Source: a bacterium (lineage in GTDB: Bacteria > DRYD01). From it: a stretch of DNA of 64,000 nt. Location of the stretch: positions 111,232 through 175,231 of the forward strand of contig JAUQQQ010000002.1 in the NCBI GenBank assembly GCA_030549815.1, written 5' to 3'. The translations under genes and the position numbers were made by a program. Below are positions 9,482 to 39,490 of the stretch, piece after piece. The notes beneath the pieces were generated by a model. It did not search any database. It was not told the origin of the DNA and saw nothing but the letters and a program-made list of their open reading frames with translations. Each line of letters opens with the position of its first letter. The first letter of the stretch is position 1.

Positions 9482-9521
9482 AAAATAAACTCCCCCTTTG
9501 AAAAAAATATCAAAGGGGGAG
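9482..9521 (-). terminator. intrinsic terminator hairpin downstream of the 9544-10569 gene
   Basis: A perfect 12 bp inverted repeat, CTCCCCCTTTGA / TCAAAGGGGGAG, spans 9490-9521 with a 7 nt loop. It is followed by a T-rich run on the minus strand (TTTATTTT). Confidence 0.7.
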
Positions 9522-9543
9522 CTTGGTTACATGAATTCAATAT

Positions 9544-10569: not shown

Positions 10570-10676
10570 TATCATTCACCTCCTTTTACATTTATATTTA
10601 TAATCAAAAATTTCTAAAAAATGTTAACAAAATGTTACAAAAATTAAGAAAAATTAAGAAAAAACCACTTCAAAAA

Positions 10677-11237: not shown

Positions 11238-11324
11238 AACTTATTCCCCTCCATTATAATAAATTTACCGATGAATAAAAAATTAAATATTTTTTAAGAT
11301 AAATTTAACAAAAAATTTACAAAC

Positions 11325-12098: not shown

Positions 12099-12214
12099 TA
12101 ATTTTTTATTCTACAATTCTCTAAAAAATCTTTTATAAAAGGAAATAATAAAAATTTGAAGAAATATCTATTGAGAAATTAAAAATATGTAAGTAAAAGA
12201 AATATTCTCTTATT

Positions 12215-12433
12215 ATGTGTTTAGGTGTTCCATTAAAAATTGTCCAAAAGATAGATGAAAATAACGCATTAGTTGATATTGGGGGAAGCAAAATGGAAGT
12301 ATGTATCGCTTTAACTCCAGAAGCAAAGGAAGGAGATTTTATAATTGTTCATGCGGGATTTTCAATTTCTATCCTTTCAGAAGAAGAAGCAAATTATATT
12401 ATCAATTTAACACAAACCTCAAATTACAATTAA
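12215..12433 (+). CDS. hypC: [NiFe]-hydrogenase maturation factor HypC
   Basis: N-terminal MCLGVP with the essential Cys2. 72 aa. Confidence 0.85.
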   Translation: MCLGVPLKIVQKIDENNALVDIGGSKMEVCIALTPEAKEGDFIIVHAGFSISILSEEEANYIINLTQTSNYN

Positions 12434-20664: not shown

Positions 20665-21909
20665 TCACCTCCTTATAAGGGATAGAACTTTATTGACTTT
20701 TTCAACAAAAACATCCAGAATAGCTTGGCTATGAGAGTAATTAATATAGTTAGGCTCAACAGGATGAGGAGCTAATACGATACCTTCACTTAGCAAAGCT
20801 TTATAAAAATCTATAAAAGAAATTATGTCCATATTACCAAGATTTTCCAAGCTTTCTATCCTATCATTAGAAAAATAAAAACAAAACATGCCATTTGTAT
20901 GGTTTATTTTTAAGTAATCATCTTTTACATTCCTAACTATAAAATCAACCTTACTTTTGATAATATTATAAAAATCGGGTATAGACTTAATTATTGATAA
21001 TACCTTGTATCCAGTAAAAACTGATATAGGATGCCCTGCAAAAACACCACTGTGCGACATATTTCCAATCGGTGCCATAACTTCCATATATTCTTTACTT
21101 GATACTATTGCTCCAATAGGGAATCCTCCACCTATAACTTTTCCTATAACCGTTATATCAGGTTTTATATTTCTCCCTAATCCTTCAAAACTTTCTCTAA
21201 AACATGTCGATACTTCATCAAATATTAATAAACATCCAAATTTTTTTGTTAATTCTCTTAATTTATTTAAAAATTTATCAGTTGCCTTTATGAGTAAATT
21301 AGAAGTTTGTATAGGTTCAACGATAACTGCAGCTATTTCCTTTCCATAATTACTAAAAAATTCTTCAATTACTTCCACATCGTTATAAGGTAAGCTAACC
21401 GTATCCTTAATTAATCTCTTTGGAATTCCGCTGGATGAAGATATTTGATTACCAAATTCATTGGATCCCGATTCAACTAATAAGTAATCTATACTACCAT
21501 GATAACCCCCGTCAAATTTAACTATTTTCGACCTTCCTGTAATAGCTTTTGCTAACCTAAGTGCGATAGTATTTGCTTCTGTTCCACTGTTAACAAACCG
21601 TAGCATTTGATGATAAGGATAAGCTTCGATTATTATTTCAGCCAACAAATATTCATATTCAGTTGATAATCCACTATATATACCCTCATTAATTTTTTCC
21701 TTTAATTCATCTATTAATTCAGGATAAGCATCACCAAGTATGATTGATCCCCATCCTGAAATAAAACTAATGTAACTTCTGCCTTCTGTATCGGTTATAT
21801 AAGGACCAACTGACTTTTTAATGTATAGAGGTTTTATATCGATCAATGGGAAAGCTCTAATTGGAGCATTAACTCCACCAACTAAATATTTTTTGGCTTT
21901 TTCATACAT
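20665..21909 (-). CDS. hemL: glutamate-1-semialdehyde 2,1-aminomutase HemL
   Basis: LVGGVNAPIRAF N-terminus and aminotransferase class III features. The start is trimmed to the MYEKAKKY Met because the longer ORF (to 21945) runs into the tRNA-Leu gene. Confidence 0.85.
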   Translation of the reverse strand: MYEKAKKYLVGGVNAPIRAFPLIDIKPLYIKKSVGPYITDTEGRSYISFISGWGSIILGDAYPELIDELKEKINEGIYSGLSTEYEYLLAEIIIEAYPYHQMLRFVNSGTEANTIALRLAKAITGRSKIVKFDGGYHGSIDYLLVESGSNEFGNQISSSSGIPKRLIKDTVSLPYNDVEVIEEFFSNYGKEIAAVIVEPIQTSNLLIKATDKFLNKLRELTKKFGCLLIFDEVSTCFRESFEGLGRNIKPDITVIGKVIGGGFPIGAIVSSKEYMEVMAPIGNMSHSGVFAGHPISVFTGYKVLSIIKSIPDFYNIIKSKVDFIVRNVKDDYLKINHTNGMFCFYFSNDRIESLENLGNMDIISFIDFYKALLSEGIVLAPHPVEPNYINYSHSQAILDVFVEKVNKVLSLIRR

Positions 21910-21915
21910 AATTAT

Positions 21916-22002
21916 TGGTGCGGGTGGTGGGACTCGAACCCACACGCCCTGACGGGCACTACCCCCTCAAGATAGCGCGTCTACCAGTTCCGCCACACCC
22001 GC
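21916..22002 (-). tRNA. tRNA-Leu (anticodon GAG), 87 nt, CCA encoded
   Basis: GCGGGTGTGGCGGAACTGGTAGACGCGCTATCTTGAGGGGGTAGTGCCCGTCAGGGCGTGTGGGTTCGAGTCCCACCACCCGCACCA. It has a 7 bp acceptor stem, a long variable arm and an anticodon loop TTGAGGG. Confidence 0.85.
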
Positions 22003-22331: not shown

Positions 22332-24398
22332 CTATATAGTTCCCTTCAGTATTATATTTTCCTGTAAGTTCTGTGGTACCTCTTTATAAGTATATAATTC
22401 CATACTAAAAGTTCCTCTTCCTTGTGTAATAGACCTTAAAACAGTACTGTATCCAAATATTTCTCTTAATGGTACCAATGCTAAAATTTTATTTATTACA
22501 TTATTACCCAACGATTGATATATTGATATTTCCTCTATTTCCCCATTTCTTGCATTGATATCATTTATAACATTACCCAAATATTCTTCAGGAACAATTA
22601 TTTCTAACTTCATAACGGGCTCAAGTAGGATGGGTTGAGCGTTAGATAAAGCTAATTTAGTTGCTTCAAAAGCAGCAACTTTAAAAGCTAAAGGAGTTGA
22701 AAAATCTTTATCGTATTTGCCATCAATAACTCTAACTTTAACTTTGCTACAGGGGAAACCTGCAAGAACTCCAAAAGCCAATGCTTCCACTATACCCTCT
22801 TTTACAAATGGAACGATTTTATCAGGAATTTGATCCGTATCCACAAAAACCTTTATACCTTCATCAATAGGCATTACTTCAAGTTTTACATAAGCTGTTT
22901 GCAATTTATTACCAACTTGTTTTTGGAAATCATACTCCTCTACTGCTTTTTTAGTAATACTTTCCCTAAATTCCACTTGAGGTTTGCCAGAATGTATTTT
23001 TAAATTATAATCCCTTTGTATTCTATCCTTAATAATGTCAAGATGTAATTCTCCCATCCCATAGATAATTATCTGTCCTGTTTCTTCATTTATTTTATAC
23101 TTAAAAGTTGGGTCTTCTTCAGACAATCTTTCAAGTGCTTTAAATAATTTATCTTCATCTGCCCTTGAATAAGCTTCTATAGAAGCGAATATCACCGGTT
23201 CCGGTACAAAAATAGATTCAAGGAAAAGATTTTTTTCCTCATCCAGCAATGTATCACCCGTAGCCGTTTTTTTCAAACCCAATATAGCTCCTATCTCTCC
23301 CATTTTCAATTCCTTAATTTCTTCAATATAGCTTGCGTGCAACTTTATTATCCTATTTGCTCTTTCTTTGATGTTCTTAGTTGAATTATACAAAACATCG
23401 TTTTCCTTTATACTTCCACTGTAAACTCTTACAAAAGAAACTTTACCTATAGAAGGGAAATAAGATATCTTAAAACATAAGGCTAATAATTTATCTGAAT
23501 TTTCTAAAGTATTAACATAAATTTCTTTTTCTAAACCATTTTCAATATAAAAAGCTTTTTGTAAAAATCGATCCTTAGGTGAAGGTAAATAAAGTATGGC
23601 AGCATCAAGTAATAACTGAATACCAATGTTTTTGATAGCACTTCCACACAAAACAGGACTACCAAGATTATTAAGAGTTATCCTCCTTAAAGCATTATTT
23701 ATATCATCAACAGTATACTCGGAATTAAGGTATTTTTCCATAAATTCCTCATCCAATGAAGCAATCTCTTCCAACATGTAGATTCTATCTTTTTCATATG
23801 TAGAATGATCTATATCTTCGTAAACATACTGACTCCCGTCCTCATTAACCCATCTAACTTTTTTCATATTGATCAAATCAACAACTCCAGCAAATTCATC
23901 TTCCCTACCAATAGGAACTTGGATGGGAATAGGATTTATAAGTAATTTTTCCTTAATAGAATTAACAGAGAATTCAAAATTTGCTCCCAACTTATCCATT
24001 TTATTAACAAAGAATATTATTGGAACTTTATATTTTTGAGCTTGTCTGAAAACTGTTTCAGTTTGAGGTTGAACTCCTGCAGAAGCATCAAGTATAATTA
24101 TAATTCCATCCAGAACTCTAATGGATCTTTCAACCTCTATAGTAAAATCCACATGACCTGGTGTATCGATCAAATTAAACTCATAATCTTTCCATTTAAA
24201 GAAAGTTGCAGCACTTTGTATTGTTATACCATGCTCTTTTTCTTGGACCATATAATCCATCGTTGCAGTTCCTTCATCTACACTACCTATTCTGTAAATT
24301 CTGCCAGTATAGTATAGAATTCTTTCCGTAGTAGTAGTTTTACCAGCATCTATATGAGCAACTATTCCTATATTTCTTATTTTATCCAGATTTTTCAT
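22332..24398 (-). CDS. elongation factor G-family GTPase (EF-G paralog outside the str operon)
   Basis: [32 protein letters not shown] and NKMD. 688 aa. Confidence 0.85.
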
Positions 24399-25673: not shown

Positions 25674-26186
25674 ATGGAATATTATGAATCTCAAAAAATA
25701 TCTCAGGACATAGAAAAAACCATTTTTTCAATTCAAGAAAATATAAAAAACAAAAACTATAATTACATATCAAGCCAAATAGCAAATTTAAACACCCTTA
25801 TACTCAATTACTTGCTGGCATTAGATTATGAAATAAGAAACTTAGACATAAAAGACGAAAAATTAAAGAATATAAAAGAAATAATTAATCTAAATCTACA
25901 AAAGATTACAGAATACTTAAAAACAAAAGATGAAAATTTAATAATAGATGTTCAAAATAGTCTTACTCAAATATATAACACAATTTTCCAACCTCAAAAT
26001 CTGGAAACAACAAATTGGACAGACACAGAAGAACAAACCTTCTTTCAACTACTATCTCAAATATCAACTCTATCCAATAAAGTTTATCAATATTATCAAA
26101 AGAAAAATACAGGAAATATTTCTACAAAAGAAGAATTAAAGGAAATAGCGATAAATATACAAAAATTAATAGAAAAGATACCATAA
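25674..26186 (+). CDS. hypothetical protein (helical, no recognised domain)
   Basis: ORF with a GAGGGGG RBS. 170 aa. Confidence 0.35.
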   Translation: MEYYESQKISQDIEKTIFSIQENIKNKNYNYISSQIANLNTLILNYLLALDYEIRNLDIKDEKLKNIKEIINLNLQKITEYLKTKDENLIIDVQNSLTQIYNTIFQPQNLETTNWTDTEEQTFFQLLSQISTLSNKVYQYYQKKNTGNISTKEELKEIAINIQKLIEKIP

Positions 26187-26193
26187 ATAGATT

Positions 26194-27120
26194 ATGTTAA
26201 AAGCAATTCCTTTAAAAGTATTCCCACTTACAAGAGATATAAATAATAGTAACTATATTTTATTTGAATTTTTCCTCCTACTTGAAAACCTCTCTAAGTA
26301 TAAATATAGTGGATACATAGAAGTTAAAGGATCCAAAAACAGTTTTATTATAATCATAGATGAAGGATTAATAGTTAGTTATGTTGATACAACTGATACT
26401 CCTCATGAAATATCGAATTTAATATTTAAATACAGAATAGAAGAAGAAATAAAAGCTATAACATATACAATGCCAATAGGATTTAGCAATATCCTAAGAG
26501 GATTTTATTTATTTGAAAATCAAATAATGAATTACAATTTAACAAATTACAGAGATTGGGAATCATTATTATTAAAATTAGCAAAGAAAAATACAACTGG
26601 AATAATAGAAATCGAAATCCAAGGACAAACCTATTATATGCTTATTAAATCTGGAAACATATTCTTAAGAACTGATACATTAAATAACAACAACTTGATA
26701 ATATCTTCATACTACTACAATGAAGTAATATTAAAAAAAATAAAAAATGGGGCAAGATGTATTATTAATGTTACAGGAATAGATAACAAAGAATTGGAAG
26801 AAAAACTAAAAGAAAACGACATAAAACATTCATTAGTAAGAGAATTAGAAGTTAGGGAAGCAAAGTTCTTTGGCTTATCAGGAAACACAATATCTTTATC
26901 GCAAGAAATAATTGATTTCTGGGTTTCTACCCTACAAACTACAAAAATAGGAGTAAAAATAGAAGGTTTAGAAGGAAATCTCAATGCGCAAACCAAACCA
27001 GACCCCAAATTACCCCCAGATGTAATACAATTACCTTCAAATATAATACAAAGAATAAAAATAAGAGATAGAAAAATTATGAGTGGAGAAAAAATAATTG
27101 TATACCCCGAAATATTATAA
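26194..27120 (+). CDS. hypothetical protein, possibly two DUF4388-like modules
   Basis: Two internal segments (..YSGYIEVKGSKNSFIIIIDEGLIV.. and ..TTGIIEIEIQGQTYYMLIKSGNIF..) resemble the DUF4388 pattern. The assignment is weak. Confidence 0.35.
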   Translation: MLKAIPLKVFPLTRDINNSNYILFEFFLLLENLSKYKYSGYIEVKGSKNSFIIIIDEGLIVSYVDTTDTPHEISNLIFKYRIEEEIKAITYTMPIGFSNILRGFYLFENQIMNYNLTNYRDWESLLLKLAKKNTTGIIEIEIQGQTYYMLIKSGNIFLRTDTLNNNNLIISSYYYNEVILKKIKNGARCIINVTGIDNKELEEKLKENDIKHSLVRELEVREAKFFGLSGNTISLSQEIIDFWVSTLQTTKIGVKIEGLEGNLNAQTKPDPKLPPDVIQLPSNIIQRIKIRDRKIMSGEKIIVYPEIL

Positions 27121-27138
27121 GGAGAAGATGAACAAAAA

Positions 27139-28269
27139 ATGAGGTTACTTATACTTTTTATAATTCTTGTTTTAACTATTTCATTACCCAATAATCAAAA
27201 CCTTAACATCCTTCTAAATAAGTTGGAAAATTATTACACTTCAAATCAAATTAATCAGTTTAAACTAACAATGGATTTAATTAAAGAAATAGCAATAGAA
27301 AACAACCAAAATGAAAAAGTTATAGAATTTTTGAAACAAAAAATCCTAAACCAAGGATATAAAAACCCATTCATAACAGAACAATTAGCGGATACTATTT
27401 TTGATCTCGGTGATTATGAATTATCACAAAAACTATATACTGAAGCAATAAAATACATCAATCCATCATCCAAAATATCCTCATCAATTTTATCAAGACT
27501 ATTTTTCAAAATATCACAAATAAATCTATTACAAGGACAAATCCAAGACTACATAAATAATCTAAATAAATCATACTTATATGAAATAGAGCCAGAAAAT
27601 AAAATAAATCTAAAAACACAAATAATAAAAGACCAGATAACTTATTTAAAAAATGATCCTACAAAAATAATAAATGAAATAAAAGAATTAATCGAAAAAT
27701 CTAACACTCTACCTAATGAAAAAAAAGAAAAAATCTATATATCTTTGGTAGAAATATACAGTAATCTTAATATGGAAGATGAAGCAAGAAAAATTGTAGA
27801 AAACATACTTCCTCAATTCAATACATCCTCATCCATTATTACACAATATCAATTCGCAAAAGACAAAGAGAAACAAAAACAATTACTTGAAAGGTTAGTA
27901 AAAGAATACCCTAAAATAGACCCTTATTACATTGAACAATTAGCAAATTTATACTATGAAGAAAATAACATAGATAAAGCAAAAGAATTGTATATCCACG
28001 TTATAACTGCTATACCTACCAAATATCACCTACTCTATAAATTAGCCCAAATATCATTAGAACAAAAAAATCTATACGATGCAAAAAAATACATAGATTT
28101 AGCACTAAAACAAACGGGGAATCCTGAATTCTTTGAATTGGCAGGCGACATCTACCAAGGAATGGATAAAAATAAAGCAATCGAATTTTATCAAAAAGCT
28201 TACGAACTATATCAAGAAATAAAAGATAAAGCTAAAGTCAGACAAAAAATTTCTAACCTACAAAACTAA
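27139..28269 (+). CDS. secreted TPR-repeat protein
   Basis: Signal peptide MRLLILFIILVLTISLP, with TPR-like helical repeats through the C-terminus. Confidence 0.45.
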   Translation: MRLLILFIILVLTISLPNNQNLNILLNKLENYYTSNQINQFKLTMDLIKEIAIENNQNEKVIEFLKQKILNQGYKNPFITEQLADTIFDLGDYELSQKLYTEAIKYINPSSKISSSILSRLFFKISQINLLQGQIQDYINNLNKSYLYEIEPENKINLKTQIIKDQITYLKNDPTKIINEIKELIEKSNTLPNEKKEKIYISLVEIYSNLNMEDEARKIVENILPQFNTSSSIITQYQFAKDKEKQKQLLERLVKEYPKIDPYYIEQLANLYYEENNIDKAKELYIHVITAIPTKYHLLYKLAQISLEQKNLYDAKKYIDLALKQTGNPEFFELAGDIYQGMDKNKAIEFYQKAYELYQEIKDKAKVRQKISNLQN

Positions 28270-28468
28270 TTTTTATACGCGTTATTTAAAAAGTACGGAC
28301 AGAAAAAACTTTGAGTAAAGAAAACTTTCATTTTTCAAAACTATTATATATATCCAACAAAGCAATTTTATGAGCTACGGATAATTTCTATGTATTTTAA
28401 AAAGGAGGTTTTATTTCTTTGTCAAATAAAAATTATGGTTAGCTTTGCTAACTATTCTAAAATAATAG

Positions 28469-28493
28469 TTATCAAAGGCTAACTAATTGATAA
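28469..28493. promoter_or_regulatory. operator-like palindrome TTATCAA-N11-TTGATAA immediately upstream of the protoglobin RBS
   Basis: A perfect 7 bp inverted repeat ends 8 nt before AAGGAGG and the ATG at 28510. A second small hairpin, GTTAGC-TTT-GCTAAC, lies at about 28437-28452. Confidence 0.3.
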
Positions 28494-28509
28494 AAAGGAG
28501 GTGTTAAAA

Positions 28510-28974
28510 ATGCACGGATACGATTACGGAAAAGTCCCAAATGCACCTTATACAACTCAAGATATCGAATTACTTAAAAAGACACTCTTATTTACAGATG
28601 AAGATATTAAATACCTAAAATTAGCTGGCCAAGTATTAGAAGACCAAATAGATGATGTTCTTAATCTATGGTATGGATATGTAGGATCTAATCCACACTT
28701 AGTTTATTACTTTACAGATAAAAACACAGGAGAACCTATACAAAAATACTTAGAAAACGTAAGATTAAGATTTGGACAGTAGATAGTAGATCACATACCT
28801 TTACGACATCTTATCGCCTTTATATTTCCAATAACTTTTACAATAAAATCATTTCTTTCTAAGAAAGGCCATTCTCAAGAAGAAGTAGAAAAAATGTATA
28901 ATGCATGGTTTAAAGCAATTGTCCTAACCGTTGTCTTATGGAGTTATCCTTACACAAAAGAAGGAGAATGGTAG
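28510..28974 (+). pseudogene. protoglobin-like (globin-coupled-sensor-type globin) gene disrupted by in-frame internal deletion plus TAG stop
   Basis: The N-terminal segment GYDYGKV..LLFTDEDIKYLKLAGQVLEDQIDDVLNLWYGYVGSNPHLVYYFTDKNTGEPIQKYLENVRLRFGQ is followed by TAG at 28780. The same frame then continues as IPLRHLIAFIFPITFTIKSFLSKKGHSQEEVEKMYNAWFKAIVLTVVLWSYPYTKEGEW. Both blocks align to archaeal protoglobin, but about 38 residues (the predicted proximal-His region) are missing. Confidence 0.6.
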
Positions 28975-29006
28975 ATGTAGAATTATAATTGGGGGAGGTG
29001 AAAATT

Positions 29007-30158
29007 TTGATAGAAAAATTTTTCAATGAAGGGAACACCCACATAAAAAAAGAGAATCCTGTAGAAGAATCCTTTTTGAATAAAAAGATAATTTTTTCAG
29101 AATATCCACTTCTTATATATTGGGAATTAACAAGAGCATGCGATTTAGTTTGTAAACATTGCCGTGCAAATTCAATAAAAAATCCTGAACAAAATGAGTT
29201 AAATACCAACCAAATATTCAAAATAATAGACGATATAAGGGAAAACTTTTCGAAAAATACAACGATTGTATTTACAGGTGGAGACCCATTGAAAAGAAAT
29301 GATCTATTTGAAATTATAGATTACACAAGAAAAAAAGGAGTAAGGTTTGCATTGGCACCATCAGCAACCAATCTTATAACATACAAAATTATTGAAAAAC
29401 TTAAAGAATCCGGTGTAGAATCAATATCTTTAAGTTTAGACTCTCATAATCCAGATATACATGATAAAATTAGAGGAGTAGAAAAAACTTTCCAAAGAAC
29501 AATAGAATTAGCAAATATCATAAATAGTCTAAACATAAACCTTCAAATTAATACCTTAATCTACAAAGAAAATTATAATGATTTAGAAAGAATGTATGAA
29601 TTCTTAGAGAAAAACATAAAACCCCATAGATGGAGTTTATTTTTATTGATCAAGACAGGAAGAGGAACAGAATTAGAAGAGCCAACAGCAAGCGAAGTAG
29701 AAAAATTTAATAATAGACTTTACAAAATACACAAAAATTCTTCTTTTCTAATAAAAACAACAGAATTACATCACTACCGCAGAACATTTATAAAGAGAAT
29801 GATTAATGAGGGTAAAAGTATAGAGGAGATCAAAAAAACAAGTATTTACAGGGGAGCAGGAATAAGAGATGGAAATGGAATAATATTCATCTCATCCAAA
29901 GGATTTGTATACCCATCTGGTTTTCTTCCCTTAATCGTTGGTAATTTGAAAAAAAATATATTATCAGATATTTATAAAAACAGTTCTTTGCTAAAAAAAT
30001 TAAGAGACCCTGATAATTTTGAAGGTAAATGTGGATATTGCGAATTTAGGTATATTTGCGGGGGTTCAAGAGCAAGAGCATTTGCTAAAACCAAAAATCC
30101 TTTTTCTTCTGAACCACTCTGTTTATATAAACCACAAGTTTTTAACAAATTTTATTAA
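29007..30158 (+). CDS. radical SAM / SPASM-domain protein, AhbC/AhbD/NirJ-like
   Basis: WELTRACDLVCKHCRA (CxxxCxxC), TGGDPLKRNDLF, and the C-terminal CGYCEFRYICGGSRA SPASM cysteines. The start is probably the TTG at 29007, 8 nt after GGGGGAGG, although the ORF track starts it at 28989. Confidence 0.75.
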   Translation: MIEKFFNEGNTHIKKENPVEESFLNKKIIFSEYPLLIYWELTRACDLVCKHCRANSIKNPEQNELNTNQIFKIIDDIRENFSKNTTIVFTGGDPLKRNDLFEIIDYTRKKGVRFALAPSATNLITYKIIEKLKESGVESISLSLDSHNPDIHDKIRGVEKTFQRTIELANIINSLNINLQINTLIYKENYNDLERMYEFLEKNIKPHRWSLFLLIKTGRGTELEEPTASEVEKFNNRLYKIHKNSSFLIKTTELHHYRRTFIKRMINEGKSIEEIKKTSIYRGAGIRDGNGIIFISSKGFVYPSGFLPLIVGNLKKNILSDIYKNSSLLKKLRDPDNFEGKCGYCEFRYICGGSRARAFAKTKNPFSSEPLCLYKPQVFNKFY

Positions 30159-30233
30159 AATAAAAAACACAAAATAAAAAAAGAAGAAAACTGTTATTTG
30201 ACATGTTAAATTTTTTTTGCTTTGTAGATTAGA

Positions 30234-32150
30234 CTACTTTATAGAAGCGTTTAATTGTCCTAAGGCAATCCCACTATCGTTAGGTGGAATATTTTTGTGA
30301 AAATAAATCTTAAAAACTCTAAATTTTTCTAATATTGAATAGCAAAGGATTTTATTTTGGAAAACTCCTCCAGAAAATCCGACAGTATCAATCCCATAAT
30401 TATCCATTATATTTTTCGCAATTTCATACATTGCTTGTGTAATAGTATTATGGAATTTTCTTGCTAAATCATTATAATTCTCATAATCCCTTTTTTCAAG
30501 GATATACTTAAAGGTTTCCAAGAAATCAACAATCAGCATATCATTTTCTTTATTAATACTGAATGGTAGGTAAGAATTTTCGCTTGATTTCAACGCCAAA
30601 TTTTCTAATTCTATTGCTGCTTGACCAGAAAACATTATTTTTTGATTTTCTCTTATTTTTAGCAGAACAGCAGCAATATCAAAAAGCCTTCCTACCGACG
30701 ATGTATAATAAACATTCTCATCTTTTTCTATCTGCTTTATTACTATCTGTTTTTGGAAGTTATTAATTTCATTAAATAAGTTCAACTTTTGTGGTAAAAA
30801 TTTAGCAACAAAAGAAAGTGCTATAAACACAGGATTCTCGATAGCAGAGTCACCCGCAACTATAGGGATATACCTAAAATGTGCTACCCTGTATAAATTA
30901 AAAATATCCCCAACAAAAACTTCTCCCCCCCAAATTTTTCCATCTTCCCCATAACCAGTACCATCAAAAGAAAACCCTATTAACTTGTCCTTGATATTCC
31001 TGTCAATTATTAAAGAATATATATGAGCCTTATGATGTTGCACCTTCCTTAATTCAACCCCTATATTATAAGATAAATCCTCAGCAAAAGTAGTAGATAA
31101 ATAATAAGGATGTAAATCGCAAACTACCATTTTTGGATTCAAATCATATAAATCGATCAATTTATGAACCATTTTCTGATAATTATCAAAAACATGTTGG
31201 CTAACAAGATGACCTAACCTTGTAGATAAGAATATTTTATTTTCTTTAACTAAACAAATAGAACTTTCCAATTCTGGCCCTAAACAAATACTATCAAAAA
31301 ATTCATAATCCGTTTTAATAAATTTTCCAACTCTTCCAATTCCTCTCCTAATACATAAACCCAGCTCATTATAAACAATAGAAAAATCCTGAATGTTATT
31401 GATTTTTAAATTATTATAAACAATGTATTTTACTTTATCATAAAATTTTTCTAAAACTTCTTCATCATCTATATAAGGGCTTTCTGAAGAAATATTTAAA
31501 CTACTAAATACCAAGGGTTTATTAAAAAAATTAAAAATCAAAACAAAAAAAGGATCATTAGCAATCCATATTCCGAAATAATCGTTACTTGAAATCTTGG
31601 AAGAAAATTTAGAATTTAAAGCTCTGATGATTTTTATATCAAGAGAATTATCATCGATCTTTTCCTCTGTTGTAATATATTCCTTCAACATTTCAAGAGA
31701 GGAAAAAGCTATAGGTAAAGGTTTTTGAGTTCTCTTTATACTTCTTAATTTTTCAATAGCTGATTCATTAGTTGCATCACAAATTAGATAATAAATATTA
31801 GAAGTCTTTAAAGCAATAATCTCTCCTTTACTTAAGATCATAGAAATCTCTTTGAACAGCAAGTAGTAATCTTCGAAATATTGGTTGTTCAAATATATCT
31901 TTGGACCACATTTAGAACAACATATAAAACTATACTTAAATCTTCTTGATTTAACATCATCATATTCTTTTTTACATTCATCACAAATATCAAAATACAA
32001 TTCTTTTTTTGAAAATATTGAAAAAAAAGAACCGCAATTATTACAACCACTAAAAGGATAAAAATATCTCCTACTATTTGGGTCCAAAATTTCATTCCTA
32101 CATTCCTGACAAATAGGTTTATCATTGTTTTCTTTAACTATTTCAATCAT
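30234..32150 (-). CDS. hypF: carbamoyltransferase HypF lacking the N-terminal acylphosphatase domain
   Basis: Two CxxC-x18-CxxC zinc fingers at the N-terminus, a YrdC-like block and a Kae1/HypF C-terminal domain. 638 aa. Confidence 0.85.
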   Translation of the reverse strand: MIEIVKENNDKPICQECRNEILDPNSRRYFYPFSGCNNCGSFFSIFSKKELYFDICDECKKEYDDVKSRRFKYSFICCSKCGPKIYLNNQYFEDYYLLFKEISMILSKGEIIALKTSNIYYLICDATNESAIEKLRSIKRTQKPLPIAFSSLEMLKEYITTEEKIDDNSLDIKIIRALNSKFSSKISSNDYFGIWIANDPFFVLIFNFFNKPLVFSSLNISSESPYIDDEEVLEKFYDKVKYIVYNNLKINNIQDFSIVYNELGLCIRRGIGRVGKFIKTDYEFFDSICLGPELESSICLVKENKIFLSTRLGHLVSQHVFDNYQKMVHKLIDLYDLNPKMVVCDLHPYYLSTTFAEDLSYNIGVELRKVQHHKAHIYSLIIDRNIKDKLIGFSFDGTGYGEDGKIWGGEVFVGDIFNLYRVAHFRYIPIVAGDSAIENPVFIALSFVAKFLPQKLNLFNEINNFQKQIVIKQIEKDENVYYTSSVGRLFDIAAVLLKIRENQKIMFSGQAAIELENLALKSSENSYLPFSINKENDMLIVDFLETFKYILEKRDYENYNDLARKFHNTITQAMYEIAKNIMDNYGIDTVGFSGGVFQNKILCYSILEKFRVFKIYFHKNIPPNDSGIALGQLNASIK

Positions 32151-32151
32151 G

Positions 32152-34023
32152 TCAGGATACCTCCTGAAAATTTTTTGAAAATTCTCGAGGGAAATTTTTC
32201 ATTGCAGTAATCAAAGGAATAGGAGCAGCTTGTCCCAATCCACATAAACTTGCATTCATAACAGTCCTAATTATTTCATCTATTTTTCTATCTAAATTTT
32301 TACCGTTAAGGAAATCATTCAGTTTTTCAGTTAATTTAACTGTGCCAACTCTACACGGGATACATTGACCACAACTCTCATCAGCAAAAAACTGCATTAA
32401 ATCCCTTACTAACTCTGGAATACTCATGCTATTGGGAATAGCAAAAATTGCTCCTGATCCTAACATAGCCCCTTCCCTCTGTATATCCTCATATGTATAA
32501 TCCAAATCAAGAGAAGAATTTGTTAATATCCCTCCTGACGGACCACCTATTAACAATCCTTTATTAGGTTCTCTAAAACCAAATCCAATTTCCTCTATTA
32601 TTTTTCTAACTTTTATCCCATATGGAACTTCGTTAACACAAGGATTATTAACATTTCCTGTTAACGAAATCATCTTCGTTCCAATAGATTGTCCTTTACC
32701 GTATTCTTTAAACACTTCTGGTCCGTAACTAACAGCACATGCTAAAGCAGCTAATGTTTCAACGTTATTTATTAAAGTAGGTTTTCCAAAAAGTCCTTGC
32801 TGGAAAGGGAAAGGTGGTCTATTTCTGGGCATAGCCTTCTTACCCTCTATTACTTCCAACATTGCAGTTTCTTCACCTGCAATATAAGCACTTGGCGACC
32901 TTCTTATTTCTATGTCAAAATCATTACTTACAAAATTAAAAAATCCCATATCCTTTGCTTGTTTTATAACATTTTTCAACCTCTCTATAGCTTCCTTAGC
33001 TTTGTAATTAACGAAGATATATCCTTTTGTTGCCCCCACAACATAAGCAGCAATAATTATTCCTTCAATAATAATGAAAGGATTAGATTCAGCAAGGATT
33101 ACATTACAGTAAGAAGCAACTTCACCCTCTTCCAGATTAGCAACTACAAATTTTGGATTTTCTTTCTGCTGCATTACTCCTTGCAATTTTATATGCAATG
33201 GGAAAGCGGCTCCTCCCCTACCCCTTATACCTGCCTCTTTTGCAATCTCTATAATTCTTTCCTTTCCTAATTCCACCGCCTTTTTTATACCTTCAAAACC
33301 ACCAATTTTAATATAACTGTCAATATTAAAAGGATCAACAAAATCATTGTATTTCATTATAATTTTGCCTTTTCTATCAAAATTTAAGAAATTCTCTCTA
33401 TTTATAATCGTAGGATCTTGTTTAATTTTATTAAGAAAAGTTGGTGATAGCTGAAAAACTTTGTTATCAATAATTCCTACAGGAGCAAAACCACAAAATC
33501 CTAAACAACCACAGTTCTCAACATCAAATCCTGATAAATCTACATCCTTATGTAAGCAATTACCAGCAACACATCTCCTTATCTTTATCTTCCCATTAAC
33601 ATTTGAGTTAAAAGATATGTTCCTTTCTAAATTTTTTACATCCGGATTTTTAATATTAATGATATATTCCATTTTTTGATTAAGAATAAAGCGATCTTTA
33701 AATTTAACTACCGGAGCTTGAGCACATTTCTTGAAACAATAAGATCTTCTTACATCAAACCCCTGTTTTTGTAGTTCTTCATATAACTTTCGAGAACCCT
33801 TTTCTAAACAAGATATTCCAAAACACACATAAACAGCATTTTTATTTTTTATTTCTGAAAACTCTTTATAAAAAGATATAATGGCCTTTATTTCATTTTT
33901 TACAATTTCCAATTCTTTTGACAAATTTTCTATATCTTTTTCTTCTATTCTTCCTTTTTCTTCCAAAATATCAAACAGTTTTTCTATGAGCAAAGATTTT
34001 TTTATTTGGTTCTCCTTTAACAT
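32152..34023 (-). CDS. NuoE-NuoF-like fused flavoprotein (NAD(P)-linked hydrogenase/diaphorase subunit, HndC/HoxF-like)
   Basis: An N-terminal thioredoxin-like 2Fe-2S motif (CFGISC..CFKKC), then RGRGGAAFP (FMN/NADH site) and CGQCIPCRVG (N3 4Fe-4S). Confidence 0.8.
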   Translation of the reverse strand: MLKENQIKKSLLIEKLFDILEEKGRIEEKDIENLSKELEIVKNEIKAIISFYKEFSEIKNKNAVYVCFGISCLEKGSRKLYEELQKQGFDVRRSYCFKKCAQAPVVKFKDRFILNQKMEYIINIKNPDVKNLERNISFNSNVNGKIKIRRCVAGNCLHKDVDLSGFDVENCGCLGFCGFAPVGIIDNKVFQLSPTFLNKIKQDPTIINRENFLNFDRKGKIIMKYNDFVDPFNIDSYIKIGGFEGIKKAVELGKERIIEIAKEAGIRGRGGAAFPLHIKLQGVMQQKENPKFVVANLEEGEVASYCNVILAESNPFIIIEGIIIAAYVVGATKGYIFVNYKAKEAIERLKNVIKQAKDMGFFNFVSNDFDIEIRRSPSAYIAGEETAMLEVIEGKKAMPRNRPPFPFQQGLFGKPTLINNVETLAALACAVSYGPEVFKEYGKGQSIGTKMISLTGNVNNPCVNEVPYGIKVRKIIEEIGFGFREPNKGLLIGGPSGGILTNSSLDLDYTYEDIQREGAMLGSGAIFAIPNSMSIPELVRDLMQFFADESCGQCIPCRVGTVKLTEKLNDFLNGKNLDRKIDEIIRTVMNASLCGLGQAAPIPLITAMKNFPREFSKNFQEVS

Positions 34024-35021
34024 ATTCTTGGTAATATATCTCCTTTCAAACTTTCTAATATTCTTCTGGTTCCTATTCTTGTAATGAGAAAAGTTTTCGG
34101 TTTTTCAAAGCTTTTTACTTTTCCTATAACTTTAGCATTTTTTCCTAATGGATGTTGATGAAGATACTCAATTATTTGCTGGGATTGGTTTTTGGAAGCG
34201 ACGATCACAGCTTTCCCTTCATTTGCAGCATATAGTGGGTCAATCCCCAATACTTCAGAAGCACTTATAACCCATTCTTTAACCGGTATTTCCTCTTCAT
34301 AAATTTCAATCTCAACTTTATATTTTTGGTTAATTTCATTGAGAACAGTAGCAACTCCACCCCTTGTTGCATCTCTAACAAACTTTATGCCATCAAATTT
34401 ATCAAGTAAAGGTAATATAAGGTTACTCAAGTTAGCCAAGTCTGATTGAACCTCATCATCAGTTTCTACTCCTAACCTTTCAAGCATAATATAAAGTCCA
34501 TGCTCTCCTATGGATCCAGTAACAATAATAACATCCTCTGGCTCTATTTTTCTATCTTTCCATTTTCTTTGTTTATCTATTATTCCTATACCCGATGTAT
34601 TGATAAAAACTTTATCTCCTTTATTTTTTTCAACAACCTTCGTGTCTCCTGTTATTATTTTTACATTGGCTTCCTGAGCTGCCTGCGAAATAGAATTGAG
34701 TATTCTTTTTAGATCTTTCATTTCGAATCCCTCTTCAAAAATAAAAGCAAGAGAGAGAAATAGTGGTTGAGCACCAACAACACAAAGATCATTAACCGTC
34801 CCAAAAACCGCCAACTTTCCTATATCCCCATTCTTAAAAAATATCGGATTAATAACATAAGAATCAGTAGTAAAAGCCAATGTACCAGAAATTTCAAATA
34901 TCCCCGAATCTAAAAGTTCATCAAGTATAGGATTAGAAAAATATCTCAAAAAATCTTTTTCTATTAAGTTCCGCATTGATTCTCCACCACTACCATGAGC
35001 CAACAAAATTAAATCACTCAT
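34017..35021 (-). CDS. hypE: [NiFe]-hydrogenase maturation factor HypE
   Basis: N-terminal LAHGSGG and the diagnostic C-terminal PRIC. 334 aa. Confidence 0.9.
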   Translation of the reverse strand: MSDLILLAHGSGGESMRNLIEKDFLRYFSNPILDELLDSGIFEISGTLAFTTDSYVINPIFFKNGDIGKLAVFGTVNDLCVVGAQPLFLSLAFIFEEGFEMKDLKRILNSISQAAQEANVKIITGDTKVVEKNKGDKVFINTSGIGIIDKQRKWKDRKIEPEDVIIVTGSIGEHGLYIMLERLGVETDDEVQSDLANLSNLILPLLDKFDGIKFVRDATRGGVATVLNEINQKYKVEIEIYEEEIPVKEWVISASEVLGIDPLYAANEGKAVIVASKNQSQQIIEYLHQHPLGKNAKVIGKVKSFEKPKTFLITRIGTRRILESLKGDILPRIC

Positions 35022-35164
35022 TCACACCACCACCTACTCAAAAAAATACAATAAACTAAAAACTTTACCTTCTTTTTTAATCTCAACAAAACAGTAAAAG
35101 GAATTAAATTTGTTCAGGAAAAATTATAATAATGAAGCAATAAAAAATAAATAGGAGGAAAATA

Positions 35165-36127
35165 ATGATAGAATTGGCAAATAAAATAGAAAAACTAAAA
35201 GAAATCACAAAAAACAAAAATGTAGCTGTCTTATTTCCAGGTCAAGCAAGCCAATACAAAGACATGGGAATGTCATGGTACAACTGTTTTGATAAATTCA
35301 AACAAACATTTGATTATATCAACAATAAAATTGAAAAAGAGTTTAAAGATTACTTAGGTTCTAATTTGTTTGAAATTATAAAAGACGAAGAAAAATTGAA
35401 TATAACACTCTATAGTCAAATCTCAATATTTGCAGTATCCATTTCATGTTATTACACAATAAATGAAACAATAGAAAATGTAGTTTGTTTTGCTGGACAT
35501 AGTTTAGGAGAATACACAGCTTTAACTGCTTCAAATACTATAAATCTTGACGATGCAATAAATTTAGTAGTAAAAAGAGGATATTATATGCACCATTATT
35601 CACAAAACGGTACAATGTTCGCTATCATCTACCCCTTCTCAACAGAATCAATCTCTAAATTAGAAAATATCCTACAAAATTACAATGCAGTTATAGCAAA
35701 TTACAACTCATACAACCAATTAATAGTATCATCTCCTATAAACAATACAGAACAAATAAAAGAAGAAATAAAAAAAGAATTCAACAGTTGCAAGATTATC
35801 CCACTAAAAGTTTCAGGCGCTTTCCACAGTTATTTAGTAAATCAAGCTAATAACTATTTGGCACAAGAAATAGAAAAAGTAGAATTCCAAAAACCACAAA
35901 AACCAATATTCCTTGACACACAACCAGTAACTGATCCGCAACAAATAAAAGAAATAATGAAAAAACAAATGATAACACCTGTAAATTGGATAAAAACAGT
36001 AGAAAATATCAATAAAAAATACTCAAATCTAATATTACTTGAAGTCTTACCAAACAAAATCTTAACAAATTTAGGTAGAAAAGGACTTAATGTGGGCGAA
36101 ATATCAATATCAATCGAAGAAATTTAA
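35165..36127 (+). CDS. fabD: [acyl-carrier-protein] S-malonyltransferase FabD
   Basis: LFPGQASQYKDMG and GHSLGEYTAL (active-site Ser). Confidence 0.85.
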   Translation: MIELANKIEKLKEITKNKNVAVLFPGQASQYKDMGMSWYNCFDKFKQTFDYINNKIEKEFKDYLGSNLFEIIKDEEKLNITLYSQISIFAVSISCYYTINETIENVVCFAGHSLGEYTALTASNTINLDDAINLVVKRGYYMHHYSQNGTMFAIIYPFSTESISKLENILQNYNAVIANYNSYNQLIVSSPINNTEQIKEEIKKEFNSCKIIPLKVSGAFHSYLVNQANNYLAQEIEKVEFQKPQKPIFLDTQPVTDPQQIKEIMKKQMITPVNWIKTVENINKKYSNLILLEVLPNKILTNLGRKGLNVGEISISIEEI

Positions 36128-36148
36128 CAATAAAAAACTTAACTTAAA

Positions 36149-38203
36149 GTGCAACAAATAAAAGAATTAGAAAAAATCAAAGAAATTATAATAAATCAAA
36201 CATCTAATTTAGGGAAAATTTTAACAGATTACATCTTTTCAAAGATATCAAAACAAGAAAATTTAACAGGATTAAAAGAAATATCCTTCGAATATTATCA
36301 ACTTATTTCAAATCAAGAGTTCTTATCGAAAGTTCATAAAAGATTCAACGATAACTACATAACTAAATTATTTTCAATAGAAATAATAGAAGGAGAAAGT
36401 ATTCAATCCTTAGTTTTTTCAATAAAACCAAACTATTCTATATTCGATGCAAAAAGCATATTAACTATTGGAGAATTCATACAATCGTTTGTCAATTACA
36501 AAAAATTATTTCTCAACTTTATTTCTGAAAACAACCTACCTTATAAAAACATAAGGAATTTTGTTTCATCAACCTCCAATTTCAAAGATCTTCTGAACAC
36601 GATATTTTACTTTATTGATAGTAAAGGAAACATAAGGGACGACGCTACAGTAGAATTAAAAAAAATAAGACAAGAAATATCAAACTTGATTAAATATATA
36701 CCAAACAAACTTCATGAATTTATTAGAGAAAATAACCAATATTTAGTTTCTAACGAAGTAAGTTATAGGAATGGAAGGTATGTTATTTTACTAAATTCTC
36801 AATATGTAAGCAATTTTGAAGGAATCGTCCAGGATTACTCATGGACCCATAAGACCGCATTCTTTGAACCACACTTCATAATTAATCTCAATAATAAACT
36901 AACTATATTACAAAACATGGAAAATATTGAAATACAGAAAATTTTATCTCATTTATTTCAAAAAATAGTGGAAAACATAGAAAATATAGGAACATTAATA
37001 AAGGTTTGCTCATTCTTGGAATTTTTTAACAGTTATTTTTCTTTATCTTCTTACTTTTGCTTAGCAGAGGTAAATCAAGAAAGAAAAGTTGAAATAAAAA
37101 ACTTGATCAATCCATTAATAAAGGAATGTGTACCGATTGATATAGAATTTAATGAAGGTTTAATGATAGTGGGGCCCAATAGTGGAGGAAAAAGTGCAGC
37201 ACTAAAATCCACATTTTTAGCATTAATGTTTTCTGCGTGTGGATTACCAATCTTTGCTACAAAAGCCTCATTACCATTTAATAGCAATACAGAACGAATA
37301 AAAGTTTTTTACGATATTCCTGACCCTCAAGATATCACTTTAAACATAAGCACATTTTCAGGACACGTCAAATACTGGAAATACATAATAGAAAATTTAA
37401 ATAAGGATAATTTGGGAAAAACAAAGATTTTTATAATAATGGATGAGCCAGCTTCAGGTACTGAACCAATAGAAGCAAGCACAATAACAATTGCTATAAT
37501 AGAATACTTCTTATCAAAACAAGCATTCGTTATTTTCACAACTCACTACGACTACGTAAAAAATTATTTTTATAAAAAAATAACTACAGCCTCAGTGGAT
37601 TATGATTTTCAAACCAATCATCCCAAATACAAACTCGTCTATAATACCCTACTTCCATCATTACCCACTAACTTACTTTCTTCATTACCAGACTCCATAC
37701 TAACAAGAATAAATGAATTAAAAAACTATTTTCTATCCAACGAATATCAACAAAAATTAAAAGAAATTTACTTAGAAATAAACTCAATAAAACAAGATAT
37801 TCAAGAAAAACAAAAAATAATAGAACAAAAAATTAGAGAAATAGAAGAAGAAAAATTCACGATTAAACAGAAACTTAAAAACGAGCTTATACATAAATTA
37901 TACAATGAATACTCACAAAAAATAGAGAAAATTATCCAAGAATGGGAAAAAGAATTAATCAAAGAAAAAAACAAAGGTATAGATAAATTAGAAAAAAAAT
38001 TGAAATCAATAAAAAATTTTGATCTTATAGATTACTTATCAATGATTGAAACAGAACAAGAAAAAGAAGATATCAAAATAGGAGATGTTGTAGAAATTAA
38101 ATTCCTGCAAGAAAAAGGAATCGTAAAAGAAATCAAAGGAGACAAAATAGTTGTCGAAATAAAAAACAAAAATTTTACTTTGTCAAAAAAAGATATAAAG
38201 TAA
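36149..38203 (+). CDS. MutS2-family protein lacking the C-terminal Smr domain
   Basis: MutS domain V with Walker A GPNSGGKSA and IIMDEPASGTEP. The C-terminal KOW-like IGDVVEIKF..GIVKEIKGDKIVVEI is followed directly by the stop. 684 aa, GTG start. Confidence 0.7.
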   Translation: MQQIKELEKIKEIIINQTSNLGKILTDYIFSKISKQENLTGLKEISFEYYQLISNQEFLSKVHKRFNDNYITKLFSIEIIEGESIQSLVFSIKPNYSIFDAKSILTIGEFIQSFVNYKKLFLNFISENNLPYKNIRNFVSSTSNFKDLLNTIFYFIDSKGNIRDDATVELKKIRQEISNLIKYIPNKLHEFIRENNQYLVSNEVSYRNGRYVILLNSQYVSNFEGIVQDYSWTHKTAFFEPHFIINLNNKLTILQNMENIEIQKILSHLFQKIVENIENIGTLIKVCSFLEFFNSYFSLSSYFCLAEVNQERKVEIKNLINPLIKECVPIDIEFNEGLMIVGPNSGGKSAALKSTFLALMFSACGLPIFATKASLPFNSNTERIKVFYDIPDPQDITLNISTFSGHVKYWKYIIENLNKDNLGKTKIFIIMDEPASGTEPIEASTITIAIIEYFLSKQAFVIFTTHYDYVKNYFYKKITTASVDYDFQTNHPKYKLVYNTLLPSLPTNLLSSLPDSILTRINELKNYFLSNEYQQKLKEIYLEINSIKQDIQEKQKIIEQKIREIEEEKFTIKQKLKNELIHKLYNEYSQKIEKIIQEWEKELIKEKNKGIDKLEKKLKSIKNFDLIDYLSMIETEQEKEDIKIGDVVEIKFLQEKGIVKEIKGDKIVVEIKNKNFTLSKKDIK

Positions 38204-38224: not shown

Positions 38225-38575
38225 ATGGGAATAAAATTATCAGAGATATTAGGTAGTCTAAGCCAAGCCTTGGATATGACAGAAGGACAATTAAGAGGAC
38301 ATTCAAAAAGAACAGCATACATAGCATTAAAAATAGCAAGAGAATTATCATTGTCAGATTTCTGGGAATCTTCCAAATTCGCATTAAAATTTGTAAAAAA
38401 GTCTAACTTCCTACAAAAGGTATTTCATCTATACAAGGAAACAGGGCTATCTCCAAAAATAATGGATGATTTGACATTAACAAGATGTACTAATGGTTCA
38501 AAAATAGCAACATATATTGGCTTTAGTAGTGAAGTTGCCAAAGCTATCGAATGCTTAGATGAGCACTGGGAATAG
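38225..38575 (+). CDS. degenerate HD-GYP-like N-terminal fragment (HD motif lost)
   Basis: LSQALDMTEGQLRGHSKRTAYIALKIAREL resembles the HD-GYP entry segment, but no HD dipeptide follows. This may be a decayed tandem duplicate of the next gene. Confidence 0.3.
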   Translation: MGIKLSEILGSLSQALDMTEGQLRGHSKRTAYIALKIARELSLSDFWESSKFALKFVKKSNFLQKVFHLYKETGLSPKIMDDLTLTRCTNGSKIATYIGFSSEVAKAIECLDEHWE

Positions 38576-38636
38576 AATTAGTAAATATTGCTTTCAAATT
38601 TAAGGACAATAAGGAATTCTGGGAAATATACAAAAA

Positions 38637-39155
38637 ATGCTAAACAATCCAGCATTAAACATAAGTTTGGGAATAGAAAATATTGAAGAAAAATTAACTG
38701 TAGATGATATAGATAGAATATGCCAAGCTTTTGCAATGATAATCGACGCCAAAAGTAATTACACTTATGAACATTCATCAAGGGTAGCCAAATATTCAGT
38801 AGCAATTTCTAAAAAAATTGGATTTGATGAAGAAAAGATAAAATTCATATACAGAGCAGGACTTTTACATGATATTGGAAAATTAGGAATACCATCATCT
38901 ATCATAGATAAACCTGGCAAATTAACCAATGAACAAAAGCTCAACGGCAAAGGATATCATCGCAAATTAAAAGGTCAAGAAATAAACGTAGAGTCAAGAA
39001 TTCTGGCAGTAGCAGATGTGTTTGATGCACTTCACAGTGAAAGACCATACCGCCCAGCAATGCCCATTGAAAAAGTCTTTAAAATAATGCAAGAAGAAAT
39101 GAAAGAAGAACTTGATCAAAACATAGTCCTTACACTAAAAGAAATTATCCAATGA
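38637..39155 (+). CDS. HD-GYP-like HD-domain protein with shortened, divergent GYP region
   Basis: YEHSSRVAKYSVAISKKIG..AGLLHDIGKLGIPSSIIDKPGKLT, then directly KGYHRKLKGQEI (GYP read as GYH), then AVADVFDALHSERPYRPA. The usual block carrying the HHE residues appears to be absent. Confidence 0.55.
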   Translation: MLNNPALNISLGIENIEEKLTVDDIDRICQAFAMIIDAKSNYTYEHSSRVAKYSVAISKKIGFDEEKIKFIYRAGLLHDIGKLGIPSSIIDKPGKLTNEQKLNGKGYHRKLKGQEINVESRILAVADVFDALHSERPYRPAMPIEKVFKIMQEEMKEELDQNIVLTLKEIIQ

Positions 39156-39490
39156 CAAAAATAAGAACCTGTATATTCTGCAAAAAAAAATTCAAACAAG
39201 AAAAAATGTTAAGAATATTCTTTATTAATTCTCCTATCCTATTTTACAATAAAAAAGCAATCGATCTAGAAAAACAAGAATACCTTAAAGACATAAAAAC
39301 AATATTCAAGAAAAAAAGTAGAAGTTTTTATATTTGTTTAGAATGTTTATTTAAAGAAAATTATCGAAAATCTGAACGAATAAGACAAATAAAATATGCT
39401 CTTTCAAAATTTAAGGATAATTCTATCAAAATCAATCCAGAATATCTATTTTCCAAAATTGAAGAACTAAAAACGAAAATTTTTATATAG
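39152..39490 (+). CDS. YlxR-like (DUF448) small protein
   Basis: KIRTCIFCKKKFKQEKMLRI and ..SRSFYICLEC fit the YlxR pattern R.C..C..K.EL.R / GRGAY.C..C. Confidence 0.4.
   Translation: MTKIRTCIFCKKKFKQEKMLRIFFINSPILFYNKKAIDLEKQEYLKDIKTIFKKKSRSFYICLECLFKENYRKSERIRQIKYALSKFKDNSIKINPEYLFSKIEELKTKIFI

Follow-up and report, generated by a model that had tools for sequence, protein, structure and literature searches.

A predicted heme synthase gene of the AhbD lineage paired with a protoglobin gene in an uncultured bacterial lineage

We analyzed a 64,000-nucleotide stretch of bacterial DNA (contig JAUQQQ010000002.1, positions 111,232 to 175,231; hereafter, the window) that carries a gene for a radical S-adenosylmethionine (SAM) protein at positions 29007 to 30158 of its + strand. 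Family scores, cluster motifs, sequence conservation and gene context lead to a predicted heme-synthase role for this protein. It is probably an enzyme that decarboxylates coproheme to heme b without using O2, and that represents a subtype of the AhbD lineage, the NCBIfam family TIGR04053, in which the auxiliary site AuxI is missing. The gene fits a kind of enzyme that had already been predicted. What is modestly novel is its arrangement in a two-gene unit with a protoglobin gene, together with a polymorphic deletion of 108 nucleotides (nt) in the latter.

For the window itself, we therefore see an ordinary heme-synthase homolog that is predicted to be functional, and neither evidence for a siroheme-dependent pathway nor a peptide maturase. 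More generally, TIGR04053 is a candidate family for the anaerobic replacement of ChdC: it lacks AuxI, like the AhbDs of Crenarchaeota and haloarchaea, and occurs in hemE-hemH-hemY operons of several phyla. One deep-branching, uncultured lineage appears to have moved such an AhbD-type gene into a unit with protoglobin.

The radical SAM gene and its family

The open reading frame (ORF) that an earlier note on this DNA had pointed out is real: it lies on the + strand, is intact, ends with its stop codon at 30158 and matches Pfam and NCBIfam models far above chance (E = 4e-122 for the best NCBIfam match). Its longest form begins with a TTG at 28989, and the start given previously is the TTG at 29007, which yields a protein of 383 amino acids (aa). 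A Shine-Dalgarno-like sequence, GGGGGAGGTG (28992 to 29001, + strand), ends 5 nt before this second TTG, and the motif also precedes the gene in L097, a related locus described below. The TTG at 29007 was likewise called as the start in an independent assembly (P0001, 383 aa, a 99%-identical protein). The conserved core of the protein begins at about residue 34 to 36. An AlphaFold2 model has a predicted local distance difference test (pLDDT) score of 91.4, with the first 13 residues below 50.

The protein belongs to the radical SAM superfamily, scoring 86.8 bits against PF04055 (Radical_SAM; gathering threshold 29.5) and carrying the CX3CX2C motif. The two sequence motifs quoted earlier for the AhbC/AhbD/NirJ branch are present, WELTRACDLVCKHCRA at residues 39 to 54 and TGGDPLKRNDLF at residues 90 to 101, and the placement in this branch held up: the top six NCBIfam models are TIGR04053, AhbD, NirJ2, NirJ, NirJ1 and AhbC. 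The cut-off of TIGR04053, a family titled "radical SAM/SPASM domain-containing protein", is the only curated one in NCBIfam that the protein passes (407.9 bits versus 395, over model positions 3 to 366 of 366). It stays below the cut-off of the AhbD equivalog, TIGR04545 (289.5 bits versus 500), and below those of NirJ2 (199.5 versus 500), NirJ (147 versus 515) and NirJ1 (146 versus 650); AhbC reaches 143 bits. The protein thus appears to belong to a sister family of the characterized AhbDs. The presence of all three NirJ models among the top five could suggest an enzyme of heme d1 biosynthesis, but their scores of 146 to 200 bits face cut-offs of 500 to 650, and neither nirS nor nirD, L, G, H or F was found in the window or the related loci examined. 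A NirJ-type enzyme is therefore very unlikely.

The cysteines of the protein agree with published AhbDs. Fix et al. (PMC10452713) reported that all AhbDs carry CX3CX2C and CX2CX5CX20-38C, that four further AuxI cysteines occur only in the AhbDs of methanogens and sulfate reducers, and that AhbDs of non-methanogenic archaea have Glu, Ser and Ser at three of the AuxI cysteine positions. The protein in the window has exactly seven cysteines. Three of them (C45, C49 and C52; 29139 to 29162, + strand) form the CX3CX2C of the predicted radical SAM [4Fe-4S] site and are invariant in the family alignment. The other four (C342, C345, C351 and C372; 30030 to 30122, + strand) have the spacing CX2CX5CX20C, which agrees with the published definition (PMC10452713), and form the single predicted [4Fe-4S] site of AuxII type. 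A full SPASM domain is not recognized: PF13186 scores 18.6 bits against a gathering threshold of 21.5, and there are four C-terminal cysteines instead of seven to eight.

The positions that would hold AuxI are occupied by other residues. In the alignment taken from the supplement to PMC10452713, the AuxI ligands C223, C274 and C324 of Methanosarcina barkeri AhbD correspond to E253 in the block TTELHHYRR (29757 to 29783, + strand), S304 in the block YPSGFLP (29910 to 29930, + strand) and S354 in the block CGGSRAR. In other words, TTE(253) aligns with ATC(223), YPS(304)GFLP with FPC(274)GYLP, and CGGS(354)RAR with CAGC(324)RAR. E253 and S354 are invariant in 28 diverse family members, and position 304 is Ser or Ala.

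This pattern closely resembles that of the non-methanogenic archaeal AhbDs (APE_1655, SSO1631 and Hlac_1215). These share the two cysteine motifs and the Glu/Ser/Ser triplet, and also have nearly identical blocks (TTEAPxYRR, RDGxGxxF, YPSGFLP and CGGSRAR), with 35 to 39% identity over about 275 aligned residues. Their hosts, however, are siroheme-dependent, and a neighbor-joining tree groups the window protein with the bacterial ones: its clade lies within bacterial TIGR04053, the sister group of the AhbDs from haloarchaea and Crenarchaeota, and the AhbDs of methanogens and sulfate reducers, which have a full SPASM domain, fall outside. The characterized AhbDs of M. barkeri and Desulfovibrio vulgaris (TIGR04545) are 33 to 35% identical, share the radical SAM and AuxII motifs and presumably carry out the same reaction, but they have a full SPASM domain with AuxI (C223, C256, C274 and C324), which is missing here.

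Within TIGR04053, members from Acidobacteriota, Armatimonadota, Chloroflexota, WOR-3, Bipolaricaulota and other phyla were compared. About 72 positions, including all seven cysteines, E253 and S354, are invariant between the clade of the window protein and the members encoded in heme operons. Compared to the gene in L097, whose protein is 96% identical, dN is 0.0175 and dS 0.30 (dN/dS 0.058), i.e., the radical SAM gene of the window is under strong purifying selection. Eight synonymous and four non-synonymous differences separate it from the gene in L007, an independent assembly.

As an alternative, the earlier note had considered a maturase of peptides or cofactors that was acquired along with the globin. 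Such an enzyme would modify a ribosomally synthesized peptide, in the manner of the sactipeptide, ranthipeptide, PqqE or MftC maturases. The fold is of SPASM type, and the best solved fold matches are SuiB, PqqE, CteB, SkfB and anSME. However, these matches, with SuiB at the top of the PDB fold search, are generic SPASM enzymes, and the same matches were reported for genuine AhbD, again with SuiB first for the M. barkeri model (PMC10452713). No peptide-maturase model exceeds 113 bits, whereas their cut-offs range from 265 to 850 (the best has 112.6 against 650). No conserved or cysteine-rich small ORF that might encode a precursor occurs at 28270 to 29010 or downstream, and the N-terminus is too short for an RRE domain. 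The AuxI site, which binds the substrate in some maturases, is missing. This alternative is effectively refuted.

Gene context of the family and the proposed reaction

We scanned one genome per GTDB species and obtained at least 584 relatives, the best 80 loci of which were kept. All ORFs up to 7 kb away from the radical SAM gene were clustered, and recurrent clusters were named by NCBIfam. At least one heme gene lies within this distance in 36 of 77 TIGR04053 loci, which come from other phyla. By number of loci, the clusters are hemY (30), hemA (21), hemL (15), hemB (14), hemE (14), hemH (13) and hemD (9), and hemY is mostly directly adjacent to the TIGR04053 gene. Counted over the distant family loci, hemE, hemY/cgoX and hemH/cpfC each stand beside 16 to 32 of 80. 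A hemQ-like gene occurs within 10 kb on either side in nine loci. The most complete picture comes from L028, a metagenome-assembled genome (MAG) of WOR-3, whose operon comprises a hemA-hemC fusion, hemD, hemB, a hemQ-like gene, the TIGR04053 gene (464.8 bits), hemL, hemE, hemH, hemY and ferritin. Here, the start of the TIGR04053 gene overlaps the stop of the hemQ-like gene by 4 nt.

The coproporphyrin-dependent route of heme biosynthesis is encoded by hemE, hemH, hemY and hemQ. The operons of the family are thus of coproporphyrin type, and are not ahbABC operons. HemQ, also called ChdC, is proposed to carry out the same net reaction, and in some operons a hemQ-like gene is directly upstream of TIGR04053. 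The two proteins are otherwise unlike: HemQ has an unrelated, chlorite-dismutase-like fold and depends on H2O2 or O2, versus SAM and an iron-sulfur cluster, and no hemQ is present in the window. Such a neighborhood, in which one enzyme needs O2 and the other does not, is what would be expected of isofunctional pairs.

Previous work is in line with such a role. An AhbD-like radical SAM enzyme was presumed to be the anaerobic substitute for ChdC in the coproporphyrin pathway (PMC10114771), and AhbD was found in bacteria that use this pathway and have no other Ahb genes (PMC13564367). A ΔahbD strain of Haloferax volcanii grows poorly only under anaerobic conditions, and protoheme restores its growth (PMC5746218). 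On our reading of the haloarchaeal sequences, the H. volcanii AhbD would belong to the AuxI-less group. As a separate observation, the hemY-TIGR04053 pair in Acidobacteriaceae (L015, L021, L055, L075 and others) is flanked by genes for a universal stress protein, a regulator of the Crp/Fnr family and a multiheme cytochrome c. Such flanking genes would fit a control that responds to oxygen.

We infer the substrate, chemistry and upstream pathway of the enzyme from characterized AhbD and from the family's gene context, as follows. The CX3CX2C cluster would cleave SAM reductively to give a 5′-deoxyadenosyl radical. By analogy, this radical would attack Fe-coproporphyrin III (coproheme) by removing a hydrogen from one of its propionate side chains. 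Oxidative decarboxylation would convert the two propionates of rings A and B in turn, leaving the vinyl groups of heme b. The surplus electron would be taken up by the single CX2CX5CX20C cluster near the C-terminus. As the source of coproheme, we favor the coproporphyrin route (HemE, HemY/CgoX and HemH/CpfC), based on the gene context at the level of the family; the enzyme would then be the anaerobic counterpart of HemQ/ChdC.

Coproheme could instead be supplied from siroheme by AhbA/B and AhbC, as the earlier note had suggested for an AhbD of the siroheme-dependent pathway. The chemistry of the enzyme would be the same, similar AuxI-less archaeal AhbDs work in organisms with the siroheme pathway (PMC10452713), and AhbD is the second-best model at 289.5 bits. 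However, this score is far from the equivalog cut-off of 500. In addition, neither ahbA, B or C, nor siroheme synthase or NirD/L-like genes occur in the 64 kb, no ahbA/B/C or siroheme genes were found at the loci of close relatives, and the bacterial family members sit with the hemE, hemH, hemY and hemQ genes of the coproporphyrin route. We therefore did not retain the earlier inference, and consider a siroheme-derived substrate rather unlikely.

Several observations weigh against a heme-synthase function for the gene in the window. Homologs fall into two tiers, a handful with 71 to 75% identity and then thousands with at most 50%, and the clade of the window protein is divergent, with 45 to 50% identity to the members encoded in hemY/hemE/hemH/hemQ operons, which form the main family. 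The close tier scores at the TIGR04053 threshold (388 to 408 bits; L097 402, L089 406.5), and one relative, P0003, falls below the cut-off with 388. Genes of this clade were never seen in a heme operon, but lie beside protoglobin or directly 3′ of moeA. In the window, tblastn at 1e-8 found no homolog of hemA, B, C, D, E, H, Y or Q in 64 kb, and the only heme gene is a borderline hemL. The neighbor-joining tree is indicative only, since its AhbD references are partial, machine-read sequences from the PMC10452713 supplement with one alignment block missing. A full-text literature search found no paper that names TIGR04053, and we found no assayed bacterial member in the literature, so that gene context and homology are the basis for the proposed function. 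Finally, the AhbD homolog Gms, a GMGT lipid synthase with 36% identity to M. barkeri AhbD, has a changed substrate (PMC11214058).

This last precedent raises the idea that the window protein, too, was recruited to a non-heme substrate, for cross-linking of lipids as in Gms or in molybdenum or tungsten cofactor metabolism. Gms belongs to the same SPASM/Twitch branch of radical SAM enzymes (PMC11214058). A PDB sequence search revealed no close solved homolog, and the best match is another lipid synthase, Tes (E = 6e-11, core only). By contrast, Gms is at least 400 aa long and includes an N-terminal COG4001 domain of some 100 aa that binds lipids (PMC11214058), while the window protein has no domain of this type and only 383 aa.

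The molybdenum variant draws on the relative P0003 (74% identical), which is represented by six contigs. Here, the radical SAM gene begins 28 nt downstream of moeA and is near moeB/thiF, moaE and moaD, and there is no globin. Neither moaA nor moaC occurs in the 21 kb around the moeA-linked radical SAM genes (L001 to L006, at about 8696-12397, and L009). In these relatives, the radical SAM gene is followed by a 79-aa ORF of no known family; the window contains no equivalent of the one in L001. In L009, the radical SAM gene looks split, but this is due to a single frameshift, and the MAG has a coverage of 3.7x. We rejected a replacement of MoaA, since MoaA models give 62 to 66 bits against cut-offs of 284 to 325 and match only the N-terminal core, and since residues are conserved with the heme-operon members. 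A tungsten-cofactor maturase model fares no better (68 versus 380). As the roughly 72 invariant positions are common to the window clade and the heme-operon members, we give any non-heme substrate a slim chance, and coproheme decarboxylation is our preferred explanation.

The protoglobin gene and its 108-nucleotide deletion

Directly 5′ of the radical SAM gene is a protoglobin remnant (28510 to 28974, + strand; Pfam Protoglobin, E = 6e-12 for the N-terminal fragment). Its first 90 codons (28510 to 28782) are closed by an in-frame TAG at 28783 to 28785, and encode a protein sequence identical to that of the intact genes in L090 and L097, except for two residues in L097. The TAG was created at the junction (28783 to 28792, + strand) of an in-frame deletion of 108 nt, which we located by blastn and by translation against L090. 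The deletion takes out 36 residues (RDLTRAEYDQNWINYQYEIAIRHHKNKKNKTDDVNS in L090), including the proximal-His segment "RHH"/"IRHH". Beyond the TAG, the C-terminal remnant continues in the same frame (28786 to 28974, + strand). The window allele therefore does not encode a full-length protoglobin, which would have about 190 aa, whereas L090, L097 and L089 have intact genes of 191 to 198 aa.

An assembly error was ruled out as the cause, as the independent assembly L007 has the same allele. Between the window and L007, the N-terminal fragment differs by four synonymous and no non-synonymous substitutions; the C-terminal remnant has seven substitutions, all non-synonymous. Thus, the protoglobin gene, which is normally in a unit with the radical SAM gene, has genuinely and recently lost its function in this allele. 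Otherwise near-identical strains thus provide a natural globin "knock-out".

The association of the two genes, which had been noted from adjacency to the remnant, is real, conserved and stronger than first described. L090, the sole true relative in a scan of metagenome contigs with the window protein, has 99.75% DNA identity to window positions 25795 to 36155 and an intact 191-aa protoglobin gene upstream. L097 is syntenic from the EF-G paralog through the gene with tetratricopeptide repeats (TPRs), and has, in this order, an intact protoglobin gene, 69 nt, the radical SAM gene, fabD and mutS2; the spacer in the window is 32 nt. In L089, where the radical SAM protein is only 72% identical, an intact 191-aa protoglobin gene is again directly upstream. 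It ends with ...GAATGGTAA, which contains the ATG of the radical SAM gene, so that stop and start codons overlap (ATGGTAA).

The intergenic region at 28270 to 28509 (+ strand) is the presumed promoter of the protoglobin-radical SAM unit, and no + strand terminator was predicted from 28270 to 29007. Part of this region, 28276 to 28394 between the TPR gene and protoglobin, is replaced in L007 (98.6% identical) by an unrelated sequence of about 370 nt (L007 positions 9021 to 9388). The presumed promoter region therefore varies between strains. Farther upstream, an EF-G-like GTPase gene (22332 to 24398, - strand, 688 aa) heads a block that also comprises the gene for the TPR protein and three genes without an assigned function (products of 391, 170 and 308 aa). 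This block is syntenic in L007 and L097, and is directly upstream of the globin-radical SAM unit.

No radical SAM gene adjoins the other protoglobin genes that we examined, an archaeal set (Caldarchaeales, one MAG) and two from bacteria (one MAG and Ca. Calescibacterium); the archaeal ones are next to an HxlR-type regulator. Therefore, the pairing is lineage-specific. The simplest interpretation is that the unit would co-express heme synthesis with a client of heme, protoglobin being a heme b protein. Where the globin was lost and the synthase kept, other heme proteins such as KatG presumably still require heme.

A more specialized relationship can be envisaged, in which the enzyme is a dedicated partner of protoglobin and makes heme on the globin, modifies its heme or hands heme to it, or in which the globin acts as a gas sensor, O2 scavenger or heme acceptor. 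We know of no established physiological role for protoglobin. A dedicated pair, if true, would offer a first physiological clue to this role and a new type of heme-delivery module. The pair is conserved down to 72% identity of the radical SAM protein, with overlapping codons in L089 and short spacers elsewhere, and the window clade was never seen in a heme operon. On the other hand, the synthase is under strong purifying selection in strains whose globin is destroyed, sister genomes keep the radical SAM gene beside moeA with no globin near, and the other protoglobins examined have no such neighbor. Co-expression of a cofactor synthase with its client accounts for the pairing without a special interaction. 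We consider a dedicated partnership distinctly unlikely, and retain the general heme-synthase role.

Other genes of the window and the organism

The earlier note had regarded katG and hemL in the same window as signs of a heme-centered neighborhood. The window does carry katG, which encodes a heme b-dependent catalase-peroxidase (12459 to 14633, + strand; TIGR00198, 1156 bits). The hemL part stands only partially: an aminomutase gene at 20665 to 21945 (- strand) is hemL-like but borderline, since its protein passes NF000818 (408 versus 398) and fails TIGR00713 (401 versus 527). This gene appears to be a divergent hemL or a paralog. Both genes are 7 to 15 kb away, and neither belongs to the transcription unit of the radical SAM gene. 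The longest form of the hemL-like ORF, beginning with a GTG at 21945, overlaps a tRNA at its 5′ end (21919 to 22002, - strand). The true start must therefore be further downstream; the product in L007 was called at 414 aa. The window scan found two tRNAs only, and no riboswitch or other RNA element.

The earlier description of the genome as anaerobe-like is doubtful, because the window contains katG and a photolyase gene. Further genes are hypD, hypF, a nuoE-nuoF fusion, hypE and housekeeping genes. One of the latter, ProS, is 55 to 71% identical to proteins from MAGs and next about 47% to those of Aquifex, Thermotoga and Thermodesulfobacterium. Its sequence suggests that the organism comes from a deep-branching, uncultured bacterial lineage.

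The genes hypF, nuoE-nuoF and hypE (30133 to 35097, - strand; about 5 kb) are absent from the otherwise syntenic L097, in which 263 nt of unrelated sequence lie between the radical SAM gene and fabD. This hydrogenase-maturation block is an insertion or deletion at the level of strains or species. The match of HypF to its model begins only at position 97 of 741, and the protein is therefore predicted to be without the N-terminal acylphosphatase domain. The hypD gene (14640 to 15743) is 15 kb off and adjoins katG.

A gene with HDOD and HD domains (38225 to 39490) is intact in L097 (440 aa), but in the window it is fragmented into three ORFs of 116, 172 and 112 aa. Segments of about 139, 160 and 100 nt of the L097 gene are missing from the window, and L007 also lacks window positions 38588 to 39125. 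Together with the 108-nt deletion in the globin gene, these breaks point to recurrent short internal deletions in the population. Positions 845 to 2833 encode a protein of 662 aa in which a Ser/Thr kinase is joined to a long array of TPRs. An ATPase at 41032 to 42207 passes NF010335 (499 versus 340) and resembles the Holliday-junction branch-migration ATPase PINA, NF053733, with 416 bits versus a cut-off of 800.

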